NCBI RefSeq assembly: GCF_003334305.1 | Contig: NZ_QOWS01000024.1 | Source: Escherichia coli | Lineage (GTDB): Bacteria > Pseudomonadota > Gammaproteobacteria > Enterobacterales > Enterobacteriaceae | DNA length: 64,000 bases | Direction: 5' to 3' (one strand) | Shown here: piece by piece, positions 4,045 to 48,761 of the stretch | Numbering within the stretch: position 1 is the first letter of the stretch | Layout: the number at the start of each line of letters is the position of its first letter | Made by a program: the position numbers and the translations under genes | The notes under the pieces: generated by a model | What the model saw: only the letters and a program-made list of their open reading frames with translations | Database searches by the model: none | What the model was told of the DNA's origin: nothing

Positions 4045-4863
4045 TTAAATCAGGTGGCTATAAATGAACTGGGCAATGCTGTCGGTGGTGTTATCACCAA
4101 TCACAATGTTGGCGCGCGCTTTTACCGCGTCATCGGCGTTGCCCATCGCCACGCCTGTACCAGCGGCTTCCAGCATACTGATATCATTAAAGTTATCGCC
4201 GAATGCCACGACGTTTTCCATCGACCAACCTTGCGCCTCAACCCATTTCGTCAAACGTTTACCTTTGCTGTTGCCGCCGCGTGCAATATCAACCTGATCG
4301 TGCCAGGACCATTCACACTCCAGTCCCAGTTCATGTTCGACATGCTTACCAAAATGCTGCAATTGCGGCAGGTCATCGTGCGTCAGGGCGAACTTCCATA
4401 CGGCGTTAACTTGTTGCGCCGTTTCAGCCAGAGAAGCGACTTGTGTGAAAGTCGGACGCTGTTCCGGCGGCAGGGTTTGCGCCCAGTTAGACGTGCGAAT
4501 GACATGCCCGGTCGGGTGCTCATAGACCATTGCATCATCGACATACATCAGACCGTGAATGTGGTGTTCATTCAGCATCTCAATGAGTTGCAGGGCTTTA
4601 TTAACGGGCATTGGGTCCGCTTCCAGCACGGTTTTTGCATGATAATCATACAAATAGGTGCCATTACAGCAAATAGCAGGTGTATCCAGCGCCAGCGCCT
4701 GATAAAAAGGATGAATAGCGACGTGATGGCGACCTGTGACGATGATTAATTGATAGCCTGCTTCGCGAGCGCGGGCCAGGGCTTCTATCGATGATGGAAG
4801 CAAGGTCTTTTTCGGGGTCAATAAGGTGCCGTCTAAGTCGAGAGCAATCACGCGTGTGGTCAT
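4045..4863 (-). CDS. ybhA: YbhA, HAD-family (Cof-type) pyridoxal phosphate phosphatase
   Basis: Start MTTRVIALDLDGTLL (HAD motif I DxDGT); 272 aa when started at 4861-4863; ORF track gives a 34-residue N-terminal over-extension. Confidence 0.9.
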   Translation of the reverse strand: MTTRVIALDLDGTLLTPKKTLLPSSIEALARAREAGYQLIIVTGRHHVAIHPFYQALALDTPAICCNGTYLYDYHAKTVLEADPMPVNKALQLIEMLNEHHIHGLMYVDDAMVYEHPTGHVIRTSNWAQTLPPEQRPTFTQVASLAETAQQVNAVWKFALTHDDLPQLQHFGKHVEHELGLECEWSWHDQVDIARGGNSKGKRLTKWVEAQGWSMENVVAFGDNFNDISMLEAAGTGVAMGNADDAVKARANIVIGDNTTDSIAQFIYSHLI

Positions 4864-4981
4864 GGCGTATTCCAGATTAAGGTTAAGAATTTTCGTCTGC
4901 GCGAATGGTACACCGATACCACTATCGGACAAAATTCTGCGTTTTAATTCAGCATTCACCGCCAAAAGCGACTAATTTTAG

Positions 4982-6013
<1,032 letters not shown>

Positions 6014-6024
6014 CCGCTGATTTA

Positions 6025-6050
6025 ACCGGCGCAGTCTCTCCTGCGCCGGT
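6025..6050. terminator. Bidirectional hairpin between convergent pgl and ybhD
   Basis: Perfect 10-bp stem ACCGGCGCAG/CTGCGCCGGT with 6-nt loop. Confidence 0.5.
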
Positions 6051-6053
6051 GTA

Positions 6054-7007
6054 TTAACCTATCTCCTGTAACGCATGTCTCTGGCGTTCGACGATATTGG
6101 TCCACAAATTGTCTTTATCGTCAGTCCACAAATTAATCAGCAAGGCAAAAAAGCGTTCTGCTGCCGGAGAAAGCACGGCATCTTTGCGGCGAATAATCCC
6201 CAATGTCCGACGTATAACGGGTTCCACCAGTGGAATACCAATAATCGAAGAATAGGGCGCATGGGGCATTGCCAGACCAGGAAGCGCCGAAATCCCCAGT
6301 CCCGCCTCTACCAGTCCTAATGACGTCGAAAGATGACGCACTTCGTAAAACCAGTCCAGCTTCCAGGGCTTGTCGGCTAGCTGTTGTTCTATCAACAATC
6401 GGTTGCCGCTGGAGGAACGTACGCCAATCATTTTGTAACCCACTAACTCCTGCCATTCTACAAGCTGCTTTTTGGCCAATGGATGGTCACGCCGACAGGC
6501 CAGCACGAATGGCTCGTTGACCAGTGGGGTAAAATCAATGGATGAATTTGTGACGTTGTTCATGTTTATGCCAAAGTCTGATTCGTTACACAGCACCGAT
6601 TCCATGCAATTATTCGTGCCTTGTTCCAGAATCCGCACTTTAATATTGGGATACAGCTCATTAAATTTACCGATTGCCAGCGGTAAAAAATAAAATACTG
6701 CGGTCGGAATACACGCTAACGTCACCATACCACGATGATAAGCATTCATATCACGAATATTAAAAAGCGTTTCATCGAATTTCTTTATTAATTCCCGCGC
6801 CTCCGGGAGCAACCTTTTTCCTGCTTTTGTTAACGTAACCTTGCGAGTTTTACGCTCAAATAGTTGAATATGTAAATCTTCCTCCATCTTTTTTATTCTT
6901 CGCGTTAATGCAGGTTGCGTAATATTGAGTAATTTAGCAGCATTGTTAAATGAACTGGACTCTGCCAGTATGACAAATGCCTTCATACTTGATAATTCAT
7001 GCTTCAT
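6054..7007 (-). CDS. ybhD: YbhD, LysR-family transcriptional regulator
   Basis: N-terminal HTH (ITQPALTRRIKKMEEDL), LysR substrate domain; 317 aa if started at MKHELSS (7005-7007); start choice uncertain. Confidence 0.85.
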   Translation of the reverse strand: MKHELSSMKAFVILAESSSFNNAAKLLNITQPALTRRIKKMEEDLHIQLFERKTRKVTLTKAGKRLLPEARELIKKFDETLFNIRDMNAYHRGMVTLACIPTAVFYFLPLAIGKFNELYPNIKVRILEQGTNNCMESVLCNESDFGINMNNVTNSSIDFTPLVNEPFVLACRRDHPLAKKQLVEWQELVGYKMIGVRSSSGNRLLIEQQLADKPWKLDWFYEVRHLSTSLGLVEAGLGISALPGLAMPHAPYSSIIGIPLVEPVIRRTLGIIRRKDAVLSPAAERFFALLINLWTDDKDNLWTNIVERQRHALQEIG

Positions 7008-7083
7008 TATTACTCCGGAAAATGGAAGCGACGATTTTGGGTGGCTGGTCGTTAAAAATTTTAACTGCATTTAGCCAACTTAA

Positions 7084-7106
7084 ATTAATGAAAAAATGTT
7101 ATTAAT
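7084..7106. promoter_or_regulatory. Candidate LysR-type operator (T-N11-A palindrome) in ybhD/ybhH divergent promoter region
   Basis: ATTAAT-N11-ATTAAT read directly in sequence. Confidence 0.3.
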
Positions 7107-7190
7107 CGTTGAGCTAAAGTCATTAGAGATGCTTTGTCCTTAATGTAACCATATCGCAATAAGTTATGTTTTTAAATTGAGGGCATTATT

Positions 7191-8243
7191 ATGAAAAAAA
7201 TACCCTGCGTGATGATGCGAGGTGGAACCTCGAGGGGCGCGTTCCTGTTAGCGGAACATTTACCCGAAGATCAAACGCAGCGCGATAAAATATTGATGGC
7301 AATTATGGGTTCCGGTAACGATCTGGAAATTGACGGTATTGGCGGCGGTAATCCACTGACCAGTAAAGTCGCCATTATTAGCCGTTCCAGCGATCCGCGT
7401 GCTGATGTTGATTATCTGTTTGCTCAAGTTATCGTCCATGAGCAACGTGTCGATACCACGCCTAACTGCGGCAATATGCTTTCTGGCGTTGGGGCATTCG
7501 CCATTGAAAATGGTTTGATTGCAGCGACATCACCGGTCACCCGTGTGCGTATCCGCAACGTCAATACGGGTACGTTCATCGAAGCTGATGTGCAAACGCC
7601 AAATGGTGTTGTCGAGTACGAGGGTAGTGCCAGAATTGACGGCGTACCGGGTACTGCCGCACCGGTTGCGCTCACTTTCCTGAATGCCGCTGGAACCAAA
7701 ACCGGAAAAGTTTTCCCGACTGATAATCAGATTGATTATTTTGACGATGTCCCGGTGACCTGTATCGATATGGCGATGCCAGTCGTCATTATTCCGGCTG
7801 AATATCTGGGAAAAACAGGTTATGAATTACCGGCGGAACTGGATGCCGACAAAGCATTATTAGCCCGCATTGAATCTATCCGTCTACAAGCGGGTAAAGC
7901 AATGGGCTTAGGTGATGTCAGTAATATGGTTATCCCTAAACCTGTGCTTATTTCTCCAGCGCAGAAAGGCGGGGCAATTAATGTGCGTTATTTTATGCCG
8001 CATTCTTGCCATCGCGCGCTGGCGATAACCGGTGCTATTGCTATTTCCAGTAGTTGTGCATTGGAAGGCACCGTCACCCGACAAATCGTCCCTTCTGTAG
8101 GATACGGCAATATCAATATTGAACACCCCAGTGGTGCGCTCGACGTTCATTTAAGTAATGAAGGTCAGGATGCCACGACGTTACGCGCATCTGTTATTCG
8201 GACAACCAGAAAAATATTTTCCGGTGAAGTTTATCTTCCCTGA
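7191..8243 (+). CDS. ybhH: YbhH, PrpF/4-oxalomesaconate tautomerase-like putative isomerase
   Basis: 350 aa ORF; family assignment from memory of YbhH. Confidence 0.85.
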   Translation: MKKIPCVMMRGGTSRGAFLLAEHLPEDQTQRDKILMAIMGSGNDLEIDGIGGGNPLTSKVAIISRSSDPRADVDYLFAQVIVHEQRVDTTPNCGNMLSGVGAFAIENGLIAATSPVTRVRIRNVNTGTFIEADVQTPNGVVEYEGSARIDGVPGTAAPVALTFLNAAGTKTGKVFPTDNQIDYFDDVPVTCIDMAMPVVIIPAEYLGKTGYELPAELDADKALLARIESIRLQAGKAMGLGDVSNMVIPKPVLISPAQKGGAINVRYFMPHSCHRALAITGAIAISSSCALEGTVTRQIVPSVGYGNINIEHPSGALDVHLSNEGQDATTLRASVIRTTRKIFSGEVYLP

Positions 8244-8318
8244 AAAAATTCGTTGTCAGGATAAGGACAATCAATAAAGGACTTCTGTATGAGTCATACA
8301 GAAAGAACAGGATTTTAA

Positions 8319-9752
8319 ATGAATAAGAAATCGTTATGGAAGCTAATTCTGATATTAGCGATCCCATGTATTATTGGCTTTATGCCAGCTCCGGCAGGAT
8401 TAAGCGAACTGGCCTGGGTGCTTTTTGGTATTTACCTGGCGGCCATTGTGGGGCTGGTTATCAAGCCTTTCCCGGAACCTGTCGTACTGTTAATTGCCGT
8501 TGCTGCCTCGATGGTGGTGGTCGGTAACTTATCCGACGGTGCGTTTAAGACCACCGCCGTATTAAGCGGTTACTCTTCAGGTACCACCTGGCTGGTGTTC
8601 TCGGCGTTTACCTTAAGCGCCGCATTTGTGACCACCGGCTTAGGTAAACGTATTGCCTATTTGCTGATTGGTAAAATTGGTAGCACTACCCTGGGTCTGG
8701 GTTACGTTACGGTATTTCTCGATCTGGTACTGGCTCCGGCAACACCGTCTAACACCGCGCGTGCGGGCGGCATTGTGTTACCGATCATCAACAGCGTGGC
8801 GGTGGCTTTGGGGTCCGAACCGGAAAAAAGTCCGCGTCGTGTCGGACATTACCTGATGATGTCCATTTACATGGTCACCAAAACCACCAGCTATATGTTC
8901 TTTACCGCAATGGCGGGGAACATTCTGGCGCTGAAAATGATCAACGACATTCTGCACCTGCAAATTAGCTGGGGTGGATGGGCGCTGGCCGCCGGATTGC
9001 CGGGCATCATTATGCTGCTGGTCACCCCGCTGGTGATTTACACCATGTATCCGCCAGAAATTAAGAAGGTGGATAACAAAACCATCGCCAAAGCGGGCCT
9101 TGCCGAACTGGGACCGATGAAAATCCGCGAAAAAATGCTGCTCGGTGTCTTTGTGCTGGCGCTACTGGGCTGGATTTTCAGTAAGTCTCTGGGGGTTGAT
9201 GAATCCACCGTGGCAATCGTTGTTATGGCGACCATGCTGCTGCTGGGTATCGTTACCTGGGAAGACGTGGTTAAAAATAAAGGCGGCTGGAATACCTTAA
9301 TCTGGTACGGCGGTATTATCGGCTTAAGCTCCTTATTATCGAAAGTTAAATTCTTCGAATGGTTAGCTGAAGTCTTTAAAAATAACCTGGCATTTGATGG
9401 TCACGGTAACGTTGCTTTCTTCGTTATTATTTTCCTCAGCATTATCGTGCGTTATTTCTTCGCTTCCGGTAGTGCCTATATCGTTGCTATGTTACCGGTA
9501 TTTGCCATGCTGGCGAACGTCTCCGGCGCACCGTTAATGTTAACTGCGCTGGCACTGTTGTTCTCCAACTCCTATGGCGGCATGGTTACTCACTATGGCG
9601 GCGCGGCAGGTCCGGTCATCTTTGGCGTGGGTTATAACGATATTAAATCCTGGTGGTTGGTCGGTGCGGTACTGACGATATTAACCTTCCTGGTGCATAT
9701 CACCCTCGGCGTGTGGTGGTGGAATATGCTGATCGGCTGGAACATGCTGTAA
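8319..9752 (+). CDS. ybhI: YbhI, DASS-family (CitT/TtdT-like) anion transporter
   Basis: 477 aa highly hydrophobic polytopic protein. Confidence 0.88.
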   Translation: MNKKSLWKLILILAIPCIIGFMPAPAGLSELAWVLFGIYLAAIVGLVIKPFPEPVVLLIAVAASMVVVGNLSDGAFKTTAVLSGYSSGTTWLVFSAFTLSAAFVTTGLGKRIAYLLIGKIGSTTLGLGYVTVFLDLVLAPATPSNTARAGGIVLPIINSVAVALGSEPEKSPRRVGHYLMMSIYMVTKTTSYMFFTAMAGNILALKMINDILHLQISWGGWALAAGLPGIIMLLVTPLVIYTMYPPEIKKVDNKTIAKAGLAELGPMKIREKMLLGVFVLALLGWIFSKSLGVDESTVAIVVMATMLLLGIVTWEDVVKNKGGWNTLIWYGGIIGLSSLLSKVKFFEWLAEVFKNNLAFDGHGNVAFFVIIFLSIIVRYFFASGSAYIVAMLPVFAMLANVSGAPLMLTALALLFSNSYGGMVTHYGGAAGPVIFGVGYNDIKSWWLVGAVLTILTFLVHITLGVWWWNMLIGWNML

Positions 9753-9934
9753 ATATACTCGTCATACTTCAAGTTGCATGTGCTGCGTCTGCGTTCGCTC
9801 ACCCCAGTCACTTACTTATGTAAGCTCCTGGGGATTCACTCGCTTGTCGCCTTCCTGCTACTCGAATTATTTAGAGTATATCCATTTATTATCTTTCTGC
9901 GCACTTCACGGTGCGCAGATATCGGGAGCATTTG

Positions 9935-12196
9935 ATGATCAAGTTATCTGAAAAAGGCGTGTTTCTCGCCAGTAATAACGAAATAATTGCCGAAGAACAT
10001 TTCACCGGCGAAATTAAAAAAGAAGAAGCCAAAAAAGGCACTATTGCCTGGTCTATTCTCTCTTCGCATAATACGTCCGGAAATATGGATAAACTTAAAA
10101 TTAAGTTTGATTCATTAGCCTCTCACGATATTACCTTTGTTGGTATTGTACAGACCGCTAAAGCGTCCGGAATGGAACGTTTCCCGCTGCCGTATGTGCT
10201 GACCAACTGCCATAACTCACTCTGCGCCGTCGGCGGCACCATTAACGGTGATGACCATGTTTTTGGTTTATCGGCGGCCCAGCGTTATGGCGGTATTTTT
10301 GTGCCTCCGCACATTGCGGTCATCCATCAATATATGCGTGAGATGATGGCAGGCGGCGGCAAAATGATCCTCGGGTCAGACAGCCACACCCGTTACGGTG
10401 CATTAGGGACAATGGCAGTCGGTGAGGGTGGCGGTGAGTTGGTAAAACAGCTGCTTAATGACACCTGGGATATCGACTATCCGGGCGTGGTTGCGGTGCA
10501 TCTGACCGGAAAACCTGCGCCGTATGTGGGGCCACAGGATGTGGCGCTGGCTATCATTGGCGCGGTGTTCAAAAACGGTTACGTCAAAAACAAAGTCATG
10601 GAGTTCGTTGGACCGGGCGTTAGCGCGCTCTCTACCGATTTCCGTAACAGCGTTGACGTGATGACCACGGAAACCACCTGTTTAAGCTCCGTCTGGCAAA
10701 CTGATGAAGAAGTGCATAACTGGCTGGCGCTGCACGGTCGCGGCCAGGATTACTGCCAGCTTAACCCTCAACCGATGGCGTACTACGATGGCTGCATCAG
10801 CGTTGATTTAAGCGCCATCAAACCAATGATTGCGCTGCCGTTCCACCCGAGCAACGTGTATGAAATCGACACACTGAACCAGAACCTGACCGACATTCTG
10901 CGTGAGATTGAAATTGAGTCCGAACGCGTGGCGCACGGTAAAGCCAAACTCTCGCTGCTGGATAAAGTGGAAAATGGTCGCCTGAAAGTGCAGCAGGGGA
11001 TTATCGCGGGCTGTTCTGGCGGTAACTACGAAAACGTCATCGCGGCGGCGAATGCACTGCGCGGTCAATCCTGTGGCAATGACACCTTCTCGCTGGCAGT
11101 TTACCCGTCATCACAGCCGGTGTTTATGGATCTCGCCAAAAAAGGTGTGGTAGCAGATTTGATTGGCGCAGGCGCAATCATCAGAACCGCGTTCTGCGGC
11201 CCATGCTTTGGCGCGGGCGATACGCCAATCAACAACGGTTTGAGTATTCGCCACACCACGCGTAACTTCCCGAACCGCGAAGGCTCTAAGCCAGCTAATG
11301 GGCAGATGTCAGCGGTGGCGTTGATGGACGCTCGTTCTATCGCTGCGACTGCGGCAAACGGTGGCTATTTAACCTCTGCCAGCGAACTTGATTGCTGGGA
11401 CAACGTGCCGGAGTACGCCTTCGATGTAACGCCGTATAAAAACCGTGTTTATCAGGGCTTTGTGAAAGGGGCAACTCAGCAACCGCTGATTTACGGACCG
11501 AACATTAAAGACTGGCCGGAATTGGGTGCGCTGACTGACAATATCGTCCTGAAAGTGTGCTCGAAGATCCTCGACGAAGTGACCACCACCGACGAACTGA
11601 TTCCTTCCGGTGAAACCTCTTCTTATCGTTCAAATCCGATTGGTCTGGCGGAGTTTACCCTGTCACGCCGCGATCCCGGTTATGTTGGCAGAAGTAAAGC
11701 GACTGCTGAGCTGGAAAATCAGCGTCTGGCGGGGAATGTCAGCGAGCTGACAGAGGTGTTTGCGCGCATTAAGCAGATTGCTGGTCAGGAGCATATTGAT
11801 CCGCTGCAAACTGAAATTGGCAGCATGGTATATGCGGTGAAACCAGGCGATGGTTCTGCGCGTGAACAGGCGGCGAGCTGCCAGCGTGTGATTGGCGGTC
11901 TGGCGAATATTGCCGAAGAGTACGCGACTAAACGCTACCGTTCTAACGTCATCAACTGGGGGATGTTACCGCTGCAGATGGCGGAAGTGCCAACCTTTGA
12001 AGTGGGGGATTACATTTACATCCCTGGCATTAAAGCGGCGCTGGATAATCCGGGTACGACGTTTAAAGGTTATGTGATCCATGAAGATGCGCCGGTAACG
12101 GAAATTACGCTCTATATGGAAAGTCTGACTGCTGAAGAGCGCGAGATTATCAAGGCGGGTAGTTTGATTAACTTCAATAAAAACCGTCAGATGTAA
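9935..12196 (+). CDS. ybhJ: YbhJ, aconitase-family protein of unknown substrate
   Basis: 753 aa from MIKLSEKG; aconitase-like motifs CGPCFG and SIRHTTRNF present. Confidence 0.88.
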
Positions 12197-43969: not shown

Positions 43970-44092
43970 GCTGGACGTAGCGTAAACGCCTGATCCGTCC
44001 AACGGTTCGGATTTTGTAGGCCTGATAAGACGCGGTAGCGTCGCATCAGGCATCTGTTGCCGGATGCGGCGTAAACGCCTTATCCGTCCTAC
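43970..44092. repeat. REP/BIME cluster between ybiC and ybiJ
   Basis: At least three REP-type palindromes (GTAGGCCTGATAAGACGCGGTAGCGTCGCATCAGGCA, TGCCGGATGCGGCGTAAACGCCTTATCCGTCCTAC and another). Confidence 0.8.
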
Positions 44093-44095
44093 GAA

Positions 44096-44356
44096 TTACT
44101 TATAAATTACCGCAGTACCGCTTAATTTATTGTTGTTGGTGGCGGAAGTGATGCTGTATCCACTGGCACCGGCTGCCGCGGCTTTCTCAGCCAGTTTCGC
44201 TTCCAGGGCATCGAGGGTGGATGCGCCATCGGCAGAAACCACGCCGATTTTATTCATGTTCTGTGCCTGGGATGCCGTTACCGGTTCCGCGGCAAACACG
44301 CCAAATGACAGAGTTGAAAGAGCCATAGCAGCAACAACAGTATTGATAGTTTTCAT
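44096..44356 (-). CDS. ybiJ: YbiJ, DUF1471 (YhcN-family) secreted small protein
   Basis: 86 aa with signal peptide. Confidence 0.88.
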   Translation of the reverse strand: MKTINTVVAAMALSTLSFGVFAAEPVTASQAQNMNKIGVVSADGASTLDALEAKLAEKAAAAGASGYSITSATNNNKLSGTAVIYK

Positions 44357-44620
44357 AATTAATCTCTCGCAGGTGATTTTTGTATAAGTGACGTTGTTTC
44401 GTCGATGTGATGAGTATCACGTTTTTTTACGAGAGATAAAATCGAAGAGAATTGACCGCCTTGTTCAAATAAATTGATTGATATCTAACCTACTGATAAA
44501 CCATTTATTTGTTGTACTTATGAACTTGTTTTATACCGCGTGGCAGTCACAGCAGCGTTAAAGGCACGGAATGCCACGCAAAATACAAATTATACTCGCT
44601 ATGCATCTCGCCAGTTGTAG

Positions 44621-44887
44621 TTAACGTAACTGGCTGTCTTTCGAACCTCTGCGATTATATCCTGTATAAGCTGGTTTTTGTAAATCTTTCTCCTGCTGAC
44701 AATGAATACATAAGCGCACGCCAGGAATGGCTTCCCGACGGGCCTGCGGGATGGGGGCACCGCACTCTTCACATTCATCCAGGCTTTCGCCGCGCGGAAT
44801 TTCACCCCGAGCGCGGGAAATCGCATCTTCAATTGTACTGTTGATCTGTTCGTTGACGGCGTCATCGTTAGCCCAACCGGATGCCAT
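44621..44887 (-). CDS. ybiI: YbiI, DksA/TraR-family C4 zinc-finger protein
   Basis: 88 aa; CEECGAPIP...CIHCQ four-cysteine motif. Confidence 0.88.
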   Translation of the reverse strand: MASGWANDDAVNEQINSTIEDAISRARGEIPRGESLDECEECGAPIPQARREAIPGVRLCIHCQQEKDLQKPAYTGYNRRGSKDSQLR

Positions 44888-44960
44888 ATCGACCTCCCCA
44901 TATCAATACTTGTACAGTTAAGTGTAGCTAATCCAGGGACGAACTCGGGCAGTTCAAGCA

Positions 44961-45638
44961 TCAGATCTCCGACCATTCCCGCAGCAGATTATGATAAAGA
45001 TTAAGCAGCGACAGGATCTCTTCACTTTCGCCGTAGCGGCTTTTCAGCGACTGAATATTGTTGTCCAGTTCAAACAGCATGGCGCGCTTTTTATCATCGC
45101 GGATCATCGACTGGATCCACATAAATGATGCCACTCGTACGCCGCGGGTTACGGGTGTCACGCAATGCAGGCTGCTGGAGGGATACAACACGAGATCGCC
45201 TGCCGGGAGTTTTACCCGATGTTGTCCGAAGGTGTCATTAACGACCAGTTCGCCGCCGTCGTAGCTTTGTGGATCGCTTAAAAACAGCGTGGCAGAAAGG
45301 TCAGTACGCATCCAGCCGTTTTGTGGATGGCTGCGTACTGCGCCATCCACATGGAAACCATAGGTTTCATTGTTCTGATAGCGATTAAACAGCGGCGTGG
45401 AAAGGGTACGCGGCAAGGCCGCGGCAAAGAATAAAGCATGTTGGTTAACCGCGTTCAGCACCTCATTTTGCAGGGCGGCGTATAACGTGCTGCGGGTGTC
45501 GACCTGTTGATTGTTCTTAACTTGCGCACCTTGTGCGCCGGTGGTGACGCGTCCATCCACCCATTCGGCTTGTTCCAGTTGTTCGCGAAACCGGGCGACG
45601 TCCTGTGGCGATAACACGCCGGGAATGTGGTACATCAT
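44961..45638 (-). CDS. ybiX: YbiX, Fe(II)/2-oxoglutarate-dependent (PKHD-type) hydroxylase
   Basis: 225 aa from MMYHIPGVL; HxD...H iron-binding residues apparent. Confidence 0.88.
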
Positions 45639-45679
45639 ACAAGTTCTCCAAAAAGTGGGGCCTGCGCCCCACATCTGAA

Positions 45680-47962
45680 TCAGAAATGCATATTGGCTGT
45701 GAGCAAGAAGGTTCTTGGCTCGCCCGGGTGATAACGGTAGCCGCTCTTGTTGATTGAGGCGACGTAATCGGTATCAAACAGGTTGTAAACGTTTAGCTGG
45801 AAGTCGAGATTGCGATTAACCCGATACCCCAGTTTGGCATCGGCGACCCAGTAACCTTCGGTAAACGCTGGCGTTCCCACCGCGCCGTCTGAACCTTTAT
45901 GCATACTGCCGATATAGCGTGCGCCCGCGCCAACAGAGATATCATCGGTTGCCTGATACTGGCTCCATAAGGTGAAGGCGTGCTCCGGGGTATACGGCAG
46001 CGATGAGGAACCATCCTGGGCAACATCTTTGCCGTTTTTGATGGTTGCTTTTTGCTGGGTATAGCCGCCAATCACCTGCCACGCGGGAGTGATATTCCCG
46101 GCCACGGATATCTCATAGCCTTCGACACGTTTCTTACCGTATTGCGAGTAAGTTCCGTCATCATTTTGCTCAACTTCATTTTCGATATCAGTACGGAATA
46201 GCGCGGCGGTGAGCAACAGGCGTTTATCCAGAACCTGCCATTTGGTGCCAATCTCGCTGGTGTTGGCTTTTTGCGGTTTAAAATCGGTGCGGTTGGCACT
46301 GTTACCGCTGCCAGACTGCGCAAGGGCGAAGTTGTTGCCGCCCGGAGGCTGCTGGGAAACGGCATAGTTAATATAGACATTACCGTTTTCCGTCAGGTGA
46401 TACAGCGCCCCGGCTTTCCAGTTCACCAGATTGCCCGACTTGGCGGTGTCGACGGTGGTGACCGGAGAACCTTTTGCCACACCAGTTGGGCAGGTGATGG
46501 CACCGCGTCCGCTGCCGCCGCAGGCGGTGGCACTGTCATATTCAGTATGATAATTATCCAGACGGATCCCGCCGTTCAGCTCAAAATCACGGGTGATTTG
46601 CAGCGTATCGAAGGCGTAAATTGCGAAGGTATCCGTCTGACCATTGGCGTTTGCGCCGTTGCGCGTCAGGCCGCCGGGATGAATGCTGCTGTCAGGATGA
46701 TAAATATTTACCGCGGGTAACGTCACCGGATTAACGCCGTAGTTAGTCTGCGTTTCACGGGTAAATTCCACGCCGGTACTGACATCATGACCGATAGAAC
46801 CGGTATAGAACGTCGAGGTCAGGTTGGTCTGGTTGGTGAGAATTTTATTACTCACATCTTTGGTATTCGCCGTGCGTGACCAGGTCCAGCTATTCACATC
46901 GCTGGTGGGCTGAGTAATATTCGACGCCCCGCCCATAATCGCCGTCATCAGGTAATCCTGCTTTACGCGCGACCAACGGGTAGTATTGCGAATGGTGGTG
47001 TTATCGTTGATGTCGTGCTCAAAACGCATGGTGGCGGTGTCGGTGGTCGAATCGTCGTAATCGGAATCCGTGCCGTAAAAGTTATGAGTATCAACTTTTC
47101 CGGAATGATTCAGAGCCGCTGTTCCCGCAGATGGGGCAGAATAACCCGGCAAACCGATGGTCGGAATGCCGCCGTCTGGCGTGTTGTGCTGGGTGACATG
47201 CAGATAATTAAGATACAAACGATTCGCTGTACCAAGGCCAAAAGCGATAGAAGGGGCGACGCCGTAACGCTCATTTTTGACTTTGTCGCGTCCGGCATCG
47301 TGCGTTTTTTCGCCCATCACATTCAGGCGCACCGCAGTGGTATCACCAATGACCTGATTGACGTCCAGCGTGCCGCGGCGGAACCAGGCGCTGCCAATAC
47401 TGGCGGAGGCGTCAATGCCGGAATCATTGCGCGGCTGCTTGCTGATCATATTGATCGAGCCCGTCGGCGCGCTGCGCCCGTAGTCGGTGCCGGAAGGCCC
47501 TTTAATCACTTCGACCTGCTCAGTATTGAAGGTGTCGCGCGAGACGCTGCCGATATCGCGAATGCCATCAATATAAATACTGTTAGAGGTATCAGCACCG
47601 CGCATATAAATGGCGTCGCCAGTGGTGGAGTTACCGTTCTCACCCGCAAAAAACGCACCCACGCCGGGGACGTTTTTGAGCGCGTCGGTAAGGTTGGTTG
47701 CGCCCTGATCTTTAATCACTTGTTCAGAAATCACCGTCATCGTGCGGGTAGTATCCGCTACCGGACGCGAGAATTTCGGATCGGCAGATTGTTGTGGCGC
47801 ATAAAGCGAAGGCGTTGATGCTTCGACAACCAGCGTGTCATCCGCGTTAGTTTGCCCTTCGGCGGCGAGTGCCTGAGCCACAGGCGTGATGCCAATACAA
47901 AGACCGGCAAAGAACGTGAGCGAATGAAATTGTCTGGCAGGGAAATTGCGATTGTTTTCCAT
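45680..47962 (-). CDS. fiu: Fiu, TonB-dependent catecholate-siderophore outer-membrane receptor
   Basis: 760 aa; signal peptide, TonB-dependent receptor plug and barrel, C-terminal aromatic residue. Confidence 0.95.
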
Positions 47963-48065
47963 TTTGCAGGTGACTTTTTTTATATGTTGAAATTTTCACT
48001 GCCACGAGAAAGCCTCTCTGCGGATGCGATGCCACTGTTAATCTCGTGATAGTGTTCGTGCAAGT

Positions 48066-48090
48066 GATAATAATTTTGATAAGCATTATC
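48066..48090. promoter_or_regulatory. Fur box in fiu promoter
   Basis: GATAATAATTTTGATAAGCATTATC, overlapping GATAAT-type hexamers about 105-130 bp upstream of fiu start. Confidence 0.75.
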
Positions 48091-48225
48091 ACTTGGCGCG
48101 ATTTTCTATCACCCATTGCGCGAAAAAGAAATACATTTATTTACATTGCGTTCATATTTGATGTTTTTTGATTACAAAACAGGCGAAAACTGCATCCAGA
48201 GGCGAATGCAGTTACGTTGGTGGGG

Positions 48226-48486
48226 TTATTTGTAGATGGTTGCAGTACCGAACATCTGGTCATTTCCGCCTGCGGAATTAATGACATAACCTTTCGCGCC
48301 TTGCTCGCGCGCTTTTTCTGCCAGTTTATCCTCCAGATCGCTTAGGTTTGATGCGCCAGTTGCCGAAACGGTACCGGCGGGCCGTAGCTGACCGCTGTCC
48401 AGGTTACTCATCGGTTGCGCGGCATAAGCCGTGAGAGAGATTCCGCTCAGGACGGTGGCAATCAGTAGTGTGAGGCACTTTTTCAT
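48226..48486 (-). CDS. mcbA: McbA (YbiM), DUF1471 (YhcN-family) periplasmic protein
   Basis: 86 aa from MKKCLTLLIATVLSG; ORF track over-extended. Confidence 0.85.
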   Translation of the reverse strand: MKKCLTLLIATVLSGISLTAYAAQPMSNLDSGQLRPAGTVSATGASNLSDLEDKLAEKAREQGAKGYVINSAGGNDQMFGTATIYK

Positions 48487-48761
48487 AATGACATCCTCAT
48501 AAATACAACGGGTAGTGCCTGATAAGTGTAGGTCGCCTGGGCGATGAAAATGACGCAAAAAATTGACAGAGATGTGCTTATTTTTTGAACGATATATTTT
48601 TACAAAATAAGACAAATCAATGACATGCATAATGCTGATTTTTATGATGAATTGCCATAAACCATAGCCATGTTAAGGTTTTGGGGAATGATAAACGCAG
48701 CCAGATATTTACCCTGTCGCGTTATGCGGGTATCTTACGCCGCTGCTTAAAGGAGAATGCT

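Follow-up and report, generated by a model that had tools for sequence, protein, structure and literature searches.

Downstream of the catecholate siderophore receptor gene fiu, Escherichia coli carries a gene for a 2-oxoglutarate (2OG) oxygenase and one for a small zinc-finger protein, and the question raised by this locus is whether the three genes constitute a single Fur-controlled operon. The stretch of E. coli DNA analyzed here (64,000 nucleotides; hereafter, the window) harbors mcbA, fiu, ybiX, ybiI and ybiJ on its minus strand, all of them E. coli core genes. A previous sequence-only reading had placed fiu, ybiX and ybiI in this order and orientation, and both were confirmed, together with their coordinates: fiu (47962..45680, minus strand) encodes a TonB-dependent catecholate siderophore receptor of 760 aa, ybiX (45638..44961, minus strand) a PKHD-type Fe(II)/2-oxoglutarate hydroxylase of 225 aa that is the ortholog of PiuC and CciO, and ybiI (44887..44621, minus strand) a TraR/DksA-family C4 zinc-finger protein of 88 aa. 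Gene products were scored against NCBIfam equivalog models using the cut-offs of each model. Fiu attained 1508 bits with NF007349 (cut-off 686, residues 1-760 of 760 matched), and full-length matches were obtained for YbiX (520 bits, cut-off 399) and for YbiI with NF008243 (160 bits, cut-off 96). The spacers separating the three same-strand genes are short (41 nt between fiu and ybiX, 73 nt between ybiX and ybiI).

Many RefSeq E. coli chromosomes match the 4.7-kb stretch encompassing the locus with 100% identity, and coverage reaches 80% or more in 5417 of 5426 complete genomes. The base composition of fiu-ybiX (GC of about 0.53, similar to the flanks) did not point to recent horizontal transfer. 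Since Fiu/YbiX and the flanking RlmF are similarly identical to their E. coli counterparts, the sequence comparison favors repeated loss over gain as the probable source of between-genome differences in fiu-ybiX. No known RNA family was identified by Rfam from 44400 to 48300; the single Rfam match was a REP-type naRNA4 element located downstream of ybiJ. The evidence presented below makes it likely that the locus comprises two transcription units, lying side by side on one strand, rather than one operon.

Fur control of fiu and the hairpin preceding ybiX

A search with the 19-mer Fur consensus, allowing up to three mismatches, returned nothing in the window, after which the window was scanned with the 7-1-7 form of the consensus (TGATAATNATTATCA, up to two mismatches, 64 kb) and with an unrestricted mismatch count. 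The 7-1-7 search identified three sites in 64 kb against 0.30 expected, a number reached in 1 of 100 shuffles. Two of the three overlap upstream of fiu (48065-48079, with two mismatches, and 48077-48091, with one), defining an operator at 48065..48091 on the minus strand, and the top 19-mer match of the window falls on the same operator. The third match (57550-57564) falls within an ORF of 527 aa and was taken as a chance occurrence. The strong Fur box that had been read before fiu from the sequence, for which a PWM scan had been proposed as a check, is hence borne out by consensus scans that put the best matches of both forms at fiu. In agreement with these results, Fur binding at fiu has been detected by ChIP-exo as part of the core regulon (PMC10164565), and a fiu-lacZ fusion is repressed by Fur (PMC4676285). 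The Fur box at fiu is genuine and beyond chance expectation.

The putative fiu promoter, identified by consensus match alone, is a sigma-70-like candidate at 48085..48112 on the minus strand (GTGATA, 16 nt, GATAAT; 9 of 12 consensus positions matched), the -10-like GATAAT of which (48090..48085) lies inside the Fur operator. Under iron sufficiency, Fe-Fur bound to the two overlapping sites would cover this -10 element and block initiation. The fiu 5' leader presented no structure beyond that seen in shuffles. Further upstream, a hairpin read directly from the sequence (CTGCATTCGCCTCTGGATGCAG followed by TTTTCGCCTGTTTTG; 48175..48211, minus strand) lies 3' of mcbA; it was not returned by a strict terminator scan, and is probably the mcbA terminator, which would insulate the fiu promoter.

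Between the fiu stop codon and the ybiX ribosome-binding site lies an intrinsic-terminator-like hairpin (45650..45672, minus strand; GTGGGGC-GCAG-GCCCCAC, then TTTTT), with a folding energy of -15.6 kcal/mol (z -4.1) that was equaled in none of 200 shuffles. Of seven further genera or species in the alignment, five retain the hairpin, the exceptions being Rosenbergiella, where another hairpin takes its position, and Pseudocitrobacter, which carries a REP-like insert. A Term-seq 3' end mapped at MG1655 position 839219 corresponds to the final T of the run following this hairpin (window position 45650). No promoter-like site was found in the 41-nt spacer, and an IS insertion within it has been reported to yield the phenotype of ybiX loss; ybiX therefore depends on transcription from upstream. 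Taken together, these data suggest that the hairpin functions as a leaky terminator. Upon iron starvation, fiu would be transcribed, with many transcripts stopping at the hairpin and T-run immediately after fiu and the remainder reading through to express ybiX, an arrangement that would yield much receptor and little enzyme.

The sigma-S promoter and independent distribution of ybiI

The second proposed transcription unit consists of ybiI, whose own promoter is located within the 73 nt separating it from ybiX. A sigma-S-type extended -10 element (CTACACTTAA; 44918..44927, minus strand), composed of C(-13), TACACT and TAA, places the end of its hexamer 33 nt 5' of the ybiI ATG. The pattern CTAYRCTTAA occurs only once in the window, at this location, and taken by itself is not statistically rare, being found somewhere in 64 kb in 26 of 100 shuffles. 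The sequence GCTACACTTAAC is identical and equally distant from ybiI in Salmonella, and the -10 element is conserved in Citrobacter and Pseudocitrobacter. Published experiments document a sigma-S ChIP-seq peak at ybiI, rpoS-dependent expression by qRT-PCR and preferential formation of E-sigmaS open complexes at its promoter in vitro (PMC4447067, 2015), and SELEX with the RpoS holoenzyme gave a peak within the ybiX-ybiI spacer (PMC5493296). Of the separate, Fur-independent promoters for ybiX and ybiI that the sequence-only reading had regarded as speaking against its three-gene unit, one was thus found for ybiI, and nothing promoter-like in the 41-nt spacer for ybiX.

The distribution of the genes points in the same direction. 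ybiI belongs to the chromosomal core, in an rlmF...ybiJ-ybiB-dinG context conserved across Enterobacteriaceae, and it is encountered alone, with the same -10 element and with fiu-ybiX absent at that site, in Salmonella, Enterobacter and Citrobacter amalonaticus. No Fur-like site was found upstream of the stand-alone ybiI of these three taxa. Conversely, Kluyvera harbors fiu-ybiX without an adjacent ybiI, and adjacency of ybiI to this pair is confined to Escherichia and a few related taxa. NaCl is an inducer of ybiI in Salmonella, as it is of proX, dps and yciF. At the other end of the gene, a hairpin overlaps the ybiI stop codon (44598..44634, minus strand; hairpin proper 44610-44634) and lacks a T-run, and the region 3' of ybiI presented no structure beyond that of shuffles. 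The primary Term-seq 3' end of ybiI (MG1655 838167, window 44598) was mapped in LB at OD 0.4 and 2.0. Term-seq data from iron-replete LB list the ybiI 3' end and not that of fiu, in favor of independent ybiI expression; the M63 sheet lists the fiu 3' end and not that of ybiI, which counts against read-through into ybiI.

Several published observations nonetheless associate ybiI with Fur. The Fur-1 iModulon contains ybiI along with fiu and ybiX (PMC10164565), ybiI is also included in the 'ybiIXL' iModulon, serum induces it along with Fur targets, and the three genes have been called an operon in the literature (operon note, 2009). These observations, the short same-strand spacers and the absence of a terminator between ybiX and ybiI are what could be adduced for a single Fur-controlled operon whose products act jointly in an iron-starvation program with YbiI as dedicated regulator. 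The locus, however, contains both an internal terminator, with a mapped 3' end after fiu, and an internal sigma-S promoter, and its gene order is not conserved, since ybiI persists without fiu-ybiX and vice versa at the same chromosomal site, the zinc-finger gene accompanies only 3 of 80 YbiX loci (see below) and stand-alone ybiI lacks an upstream Fur-like site. We therefore deem a single operon very unlikely. The Fur-controlled three-gene unit advanced from the sequence holds for the fiu-ybiX pair and is favored by the presence of ybiI in the Fur iModulon, but the promoter of ybiI and the terminator after fiu argue against its extension to the third gene.

The association of ybiI with iron could also be direct, if a weak Fur site in the 3' end of ybiX (44987-45005, 14 of 19 matches) acted on ybiI. 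With five mismatches to the 19-mer, this site is one of six as good in 64 kb, two of which are at the fiu promoter, and it ranks close to the 1% tail among 250-nt background windows. Its location some 60-80 nt upstream of the ybiI -10 element is, on the other hand, a poor place for repression, and no Fur-like site of this kind is present in genomes with ybiI alone. Moreover, the match coincides with the codons (TAT CAT AAT) of the family-invariant YHNLL motif, and was consequently rejected as a by-product of coding constraint; that it mediates an iron response of ybiI seems hardly credible. Since neither a terminator nor any structure was detected in the ybiX-ybiI spacer, read-through from the fiu promoter best explains the published co-variation of ybiI with Fur targets, and would add a Fur-dependent component to the expression of ybiI in E. 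coli. Such a component is a consequence of position, and not evidence of shared function. In practical terms, the three E. coli genes can act as one unit, given that transcriptome decompositions group them and that one paper labels them an operon.

The YbiI protein itself, for which an NMR structure is available (2KGO), resembles TraR. YbiI matches TraR with an E-value of 3e-10, scores exactly at the cut-off of the TraR family model TIGR02419 (59.7 bits) and matches phrog_54. It shares with TraR of the F plasmid and with phage homologs such as lambda Orf73 a C4 zinc finger with a CExCGxPIPxARRxxxPGVxLC core, in which the four cysteines (C39, C42, C60 and C63; CxxC-17-CxxC) and the PIPxARR/PGV motifs are invariant between YbiI orthologs and TraR. 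Multicopy ybiI has been reported, as data not shown, to rescue dksA auxotrophy, whereas a relA spoT (ppGpp0) strain was not rescued. In contrast to the TraR family, borne on plasmid or phage, YbiI is chromosomal and sigma-S-driven, and its C terminus extends into an invariant tail of 13 residues (GYNRRGSKDSQLR) with no counterpart in TraR. The N-terminal DxxDxA tip motif, required for TraR activity, is incomplete in YbiI (W5-A-N-D8-D-A10). In the register that equalizes the distance to the first Cys, YbiI matches only TraR D6 and A8, with W5 opposite D3, whereas none of TraR D3, D6 and A8 is matched in the MAFFT register. For this comparison, TraR residues 1-10 other than D3, D6 and A8 are what we take the TraR sequence to be. 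The likeness to DksA is more distant: YbiI belongs to the same zinc-finger superfamily (PF01258) and yields weak matches to DksA models and structures, yet it is about half as long, has no long coiled coil and scores 20 bits against DksA cut-offs of 105-115.

The receptor-oxygenase pair and the site of action of YbiX

In order to define the conserved part of the locus, 80 YbiX-family loci from Proteobacteria were analyzed for synteny. The query for the genome scan was the closer of two YbiX alignments (A3), the first, diverse one (A2) being too divergent. A same-strand Fiu-like receptor gene was identified upstream of the oxygenase gene in 69 of the 80 loci, ending a median of 75 nt upstream, and Fur-like sites precede 36 of these 69 receptor-oxygenase loci, compared to 12 of 400 background windows. 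Of 65 receptor-oxygenase spacers, 27 contain a terminator-like hairpin, compared with 10-11 for the controls. The 80 loci share no general third gene family and no conserved third transport gene; a TraR/DksA zinc-finger gene is present in only three, ybiI being missing from the other 77. As judged from this comparison, the conserved unit is the receptor and its oxygenase, often split by a putative leaky terminator.

Genetic evidence indicates that this association is functional. In Caulobacter, CciT strictly requires CciO, and in E. coli the cefiderocol MIC of a ΔcirA ΔybiX strain is strongly raised (2025), as reported when Fiu function and cirA are lost together; a ybiX nonsense mutation also renders cells resistant to a catechol conjugate. 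Given the synteny and these genetic data from both organisms, the link between receptor and 2OG oxygenase, already proposed from the sequence, is real. That proposal had further envisaged an iron-starvation function beyond transport; YbiX appears instead to be tied to transport itself.

Two described systems resemble the E. coli pair. PiuA-PiuC of Pseudomonas aeruginosa likewise joins a catecholate receptor to a PKHD-type hydroxylase. In E. coli the oxygenase gene lies 3' of the receptor gene, on the same strand and behind a putative leaky terminator, whereas piuC is described only as adjoining piuA, and no TraR-like neighbor has been reported from P. aeruginosa. In Caulobacter crescentus, the Fur-regulated CciT-CciO operon encodes a Fiu-like receptor together with a YbiX-like oxygenase; it also contains an RNA feature, an annotated sRNA gene, but lacks the zinc-finger gene. 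Contrary to the E. coli system, CciT does not carry cefiderocol and Caulobacter mutants are more sensitive to this antibiotic, their phenotypes being EDTA and copper stress.

YbiX displays the features of its 2OG oxygenase family. The HxD...H iron triad (H96, D98, H158) and the 2-oxoglutarate-binding Arg (R168) show little or no variation across 31 diverse and 10 closer members of the family, and the protein combines a double-stranded beta-helix fold with a PKHD_C helical domain. Beyond the family itself, the nearest characterized folds are those of protein prolyl hydroxylases (PHD2/EGLN1, the Pseudomonas PPHD acting on EF-Tu, and OGFOD1/Tpa1), from which YbiX differs by its C-terminal helical PKHD_C domain and with which its sequence identity is just 13-23%. 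A search of the literature available for this analysis returned no substrate for YbiX/PiuC, nor the paper on the PiuC structures, which date from 2026. According to a second-hand statement, PiuC affects piuA expression.

In the proposed model, YbiX would be a cytoplasmic Fe(II)/2-oxoglutarate hydroxylase needed for Fiu-type receptors to work. Since cefiderocol is active in the periplasm and its MIC goes up when ybiX is lost, YbiX may act on how the receptor system is produced or functions, and not only on imported ligand in the cytoplasm, a reading to which we assign slightly less than even weight. Alternatively, YbiX could work in the cytoplasm on a small molecule imported by Fiu, hydroxylating or degrading the catecholate to free iron or to detoxify it, with only indirect effects on the receptor. 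Such ligand processing is at odds with the strongly raised MIC of a periplasm-acting drug upon loss of ybiX and cirA, with the protein prolyl hydroxylase folds closest to YbiX, with the lack of a dedicated inner-membrane importer encoded beside E. coli fiu-ybiX and with the absence of a conserved third transport gene from the pair; we regard it as rather unlikely. Action on the receptor system might take a more specific form, in which YbiX, PiuC and CciO are prolyl-hydroxylase-type protein hydroxylases targeting a component that makes or energizes Fiu-type receptors. This conjecture, which we hold to be quite doubtful, is based on the nearest folds, on the need for YbiX in the uptake of a periplasm-acting drug and on the strict requirement for CciO in Caulobacter. 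If true, receptor activity would depend on cytoplasmic Fe(II), O2 and 2-oxoglutarate, and the system would represent the bacterial equivalent of PHD-type sensing, coupled here to siderophore uptake.

Significance for catechol uptake

The main elements of this account had been described before, in the operon note (2009), the work on the sigma-S promoter (2015), the reports on CciT-CciO and on ybiX and cefiderocol (2025) and the PiuC structures (2026). What the present re-examination adds is modest: the receptor-oxygenase pair as a conserved unit, often with a putative leaky terminator, and ybiI as a neighbor with its own sigma-S promoter, for which reason read-through is the best reading of its response to iron in E. 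coli. Membership of YbiI in the uptake system is not to be assumed, and polar and read-through effects are to be expected in ybiX or ybiI deletions. The question of the oxygenase chemistry has already been posed in the literature and is not sharpened by the present finding. Cefiderocol and other antibiotics conjugated to catechols enter through the related receptors Fiu, PiuA and PiuD, and a route to resistance by loss of the partner oxygenase is now emerging, so that the chemistry performed by the oxygenase carries clinical weight.

Gene content and Fur operator of the fiu locus

The region 44000-48700 is E. coli chromosome, with 100% identity to many RefSeq genomes in a similarity search, and at least 80% of it is present in 5417 of 5426 complete genomes. 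All genes in this region lie on the minus strand: fiu (47962..45680; 760 aa), ybiX (45638..44961; 225 aa) and ybiI (44887..44621; 88 aa) form a block flanked by the DUF1471 paralogs mcbA (48486..48226) and ybiJ (44356..44096). The proteins matched curated NCBIfam equivalog models, each at full length and above the cut-off, confirming the gene calls and coordinates of the sequence-only reading. Just 3' of ybiJ lies a REP-type element (44019-44089) that scores 78 bits with Rfam naRNA4, the gathering score of which is 59.5; it is the probable reason why the similarity search matched a median of 11 places per E. coli genome.

A scan of the 64 kb with the Fur 7-1-7 consensus, allowing at most 2 mismatches, identified three sites where 0.30 were expected. 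Two of these overlap (48065-48079 and 48077-48091), the top 19-mer Fur match of the window falls at the same double site (48065-48091), and this double site covers a -10-like GATAAT. Together with published evidence that Fur binds at fiu and represses it (PMC10164565, PMC4676285), these results bear out the proposed Fur box before the gene. The third-best 7-1-7 match (57550-57564, TGATACTTATCATCA, 2 mismatches) lies within a 527-aa minus-strand ORF (57297..58880) and is probably due to chance. A Fur-like 19-mer with 14/19 matches within the 3' end of ybiX (44987-45005) was also considered and set aside as a likely by-product of coding, since the codons for YHNLL, a motif invariant across the family, fall at the same place.

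The receptor-oxygenase pair and its internal terminator

YbiX relatives were gathered and aligned, and a genome scan restricted to one genome per species yielded 80 loci. In 69 of them the oxygenase is preceded by a same-strand Fiu-like receptor, with a median of 75 nt from the end of the receptor gene to the oxygenase, and 36 of these 69 receptors presented a Fur-like site (at most 3 mismatches, within 350 nt upstream), versus 12 of 400 background windows taken from E. coli, the base composition of which is unlike that of many loci. Clustering of all neighbouring ORFs revealed no general partner beyond these two; ExbB/ExbD-like and PepSY/flavoprotein-like neighbours occur at 13-15 loci each. 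What is conserved as a unit is the receptor-oxygenase pair, in agreement with the genetics of both Caulobacter and E. coli. Two 2025 Caulobacter papers report that receptor and oxygenase are co-conserved and that CciT, the Fiu-like receptor, strictly requires the YbiX-like oxygenase CciO genetically; in E. coli, ΔcirA ΔybiX leads to a higher cefiderocol MIC and a ybiX nonsense mutation to resistance to a catechol conjugate. In two loci (L048 of Acinetobacter kookii, 4663-11092; L055, 4692-11129) the order is receptor, oxygenase, receptor, oxygenase on one strand, the pair being duplicated as a whole unit.

A leaky terminator is a common device for making much receptor and little enzyme. Starting 8 nt past the fiu stop, GTGGGGC-GCAG-GCCCCAC is followed by TTTTT and then by the ybiX Shine-Dalgarno and ATG; the hairpin has a folding energy of -15.6 kcal/mol, matched by 0 of 200 shuffles. 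It is conserved in Citrobacter youngae, Citrobacter sp. FP75, Kluyvera, Enterobacter sp. R1 and Pantoea persica, whilst Rosenbergiella presents another hairpin at the equivalent spacer position and, in Pseudocitrobacter faecalis (L008, ~6930-6990), a REP-like palindrome (GCCTGATAAGCGTAGCGCATCAGGC) replaces the simple terminator hairpin of related genera. Across receptor-oxygenase spacers, a hairpin plus T-run was found in 27 of the 65 testable cases, versus 10-11 in shuffled or reverse-complement controls. The Term-seq primary 3' end assigned to fiu by Adams et al. 2021, in minimal medium only (MG1655 839219), maps to the final T of the T-run at 45650, using an MG1655-to-window offset of 793569 verified against the position, 838947, published for a Tyr87 stop mutation in ybiX. 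Since the promoter scan identified no promoter-like site in the 41-nt fiu-ybiX spacer and a published IS insertion into this spacer mimics ybiX loss, ybiX expression evidently relies on transcription reading through a terminator that we infer to be leaky.

Term-seq also places ORF-internal 3' ends, again in minimal medium only, at 47885 (MG1655 841454), 77 nt into fiu, and at 45294 (838863), inside ybiX; the former could reflect premature termination or small-RNA regulation. Between the T-run and the ybiX ATG (45640-45649), in the ybiX translation initiation region, the window reads GGAGAACTTG versus GGAGAAATTG in the MG1655 Term-seq table, a one-base difference.

Promoter, transcript and distribution of ybiI

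The sequence-only reading had placed fiu, ybiX and ybiI in one unit, an interpretation that proves correct in part. The Fur box, the gene calls and the fiu-ybiX pairing stand, but ybiI is a separate gene. Folding detected no stable structure in the 73-nt ybiX-ybiI spacer, which contains the sole CTAYRCTTAA of the window, a sigma-S-type extended -10 with its hexamer ending 33 nt before the ATG. A sigma-S ChIP-seq peak is reported there, with rpoS-dependent ybiI expression and open complexes forming better with E-sigmaS than with E-sigma70 (Peano et al. 2015, PMC4447067), as is a SELEX peak for RpoS holoenzyme (Shimada et al. 2017, PMC5493296). Salmonella retains GCTACACTTAAC, and its spacing to the ybiI ATG is exactly that of E. 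coli; salt induces Salmonella ybiI along with proX, dps and yciF.

In Salmonella, Citrobacter amalonaticus and Enterobacter, glnHPQ-ybiO-rlmF-(mcbA)-ybiI-ybiJ-ybiB is intact without fiu-ybiX, and no Fur-like site was found upstream of ybiI in any of the three. Kluyvera presents rlmF-mcbA-fiu-ybiX, then 460 nt without ybiI, then ybiJ. Since mcbA is absent together with fiu-ybiX in Salmonella and kept in C. amalonaticus and Enterobacter, this pattern of presence and absence requires at least two separate events. A TraR/DksA-type zinc finger was located within 7 kb of only 3 of the 80 YbiX loci, all in close E. coli relatives sharing this site. By Term-seq, the ybiI mRNA 3' end (44598) is detected in LB at both growth stages, without a listed fiu 3' end. 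In published data ybiI co-varies with fiu and ybiX, both in Fur iModulons and in serum, and presumed read-through is the simplest explanation for this.

Candidate roles of YbiX and YbiI

YbiX carries PF13640 and PF18331, and alignments identify a full HxD...H plus Arg site (H96, D98, H158, R168); no signal peptide was evident when its N-terminus was read by eye. In some family representatives (P0206, 400 aa; P0269, 447 aa) the oxygenase occupies one end of a protein about double the normal length; the rest may be a fused further domain, a possible hint to the substrate. Cefiderocol acts in the periplasm, yet its MIC is strongly raised by combined ybiX and cirA loss. For this reason we lean, by a modest margin, towards YbiX acting on receptor production or function, a reading that is plausible but tentative, over an action on the imported ligand, which appears somewhat less likely.

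YbiI, for which an NMR structure is available (2KGO), is similar to TraR (E 3e-10). Its zinc finger and PIPxARR/PGV core are conserved in the alignment, as is an invariant extra C-terminal tail. The DxxDxA tip motif needed for TraR activity, however, is incomplete in YbiI, the tip of which (W5-A-N-D8-D-A10) is invariant in 5 of 6 aligned orthologs, Pseudocitrobacter having Gly at position 9. Blankschien et al. reported, as data not shown, that multicopy ybiI rescued dksA auxotrophy and not that of a ppGpp0 strain. Given this rescue and the TraR-like core, and with the tip motif incomplete, YbiI may bind RNA polymerase; it is a candidate, not an established, member of the functional TraR class.

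Every element of this finding is already in the literature, and the questions of YbiX substrate and YbiI function are not advanced by it; the most fitting description of the locus is that of a fiu-ybiX pair, Fur-repressed and internally attenuated, adjoining an older, sigma-S-driven ybiI.
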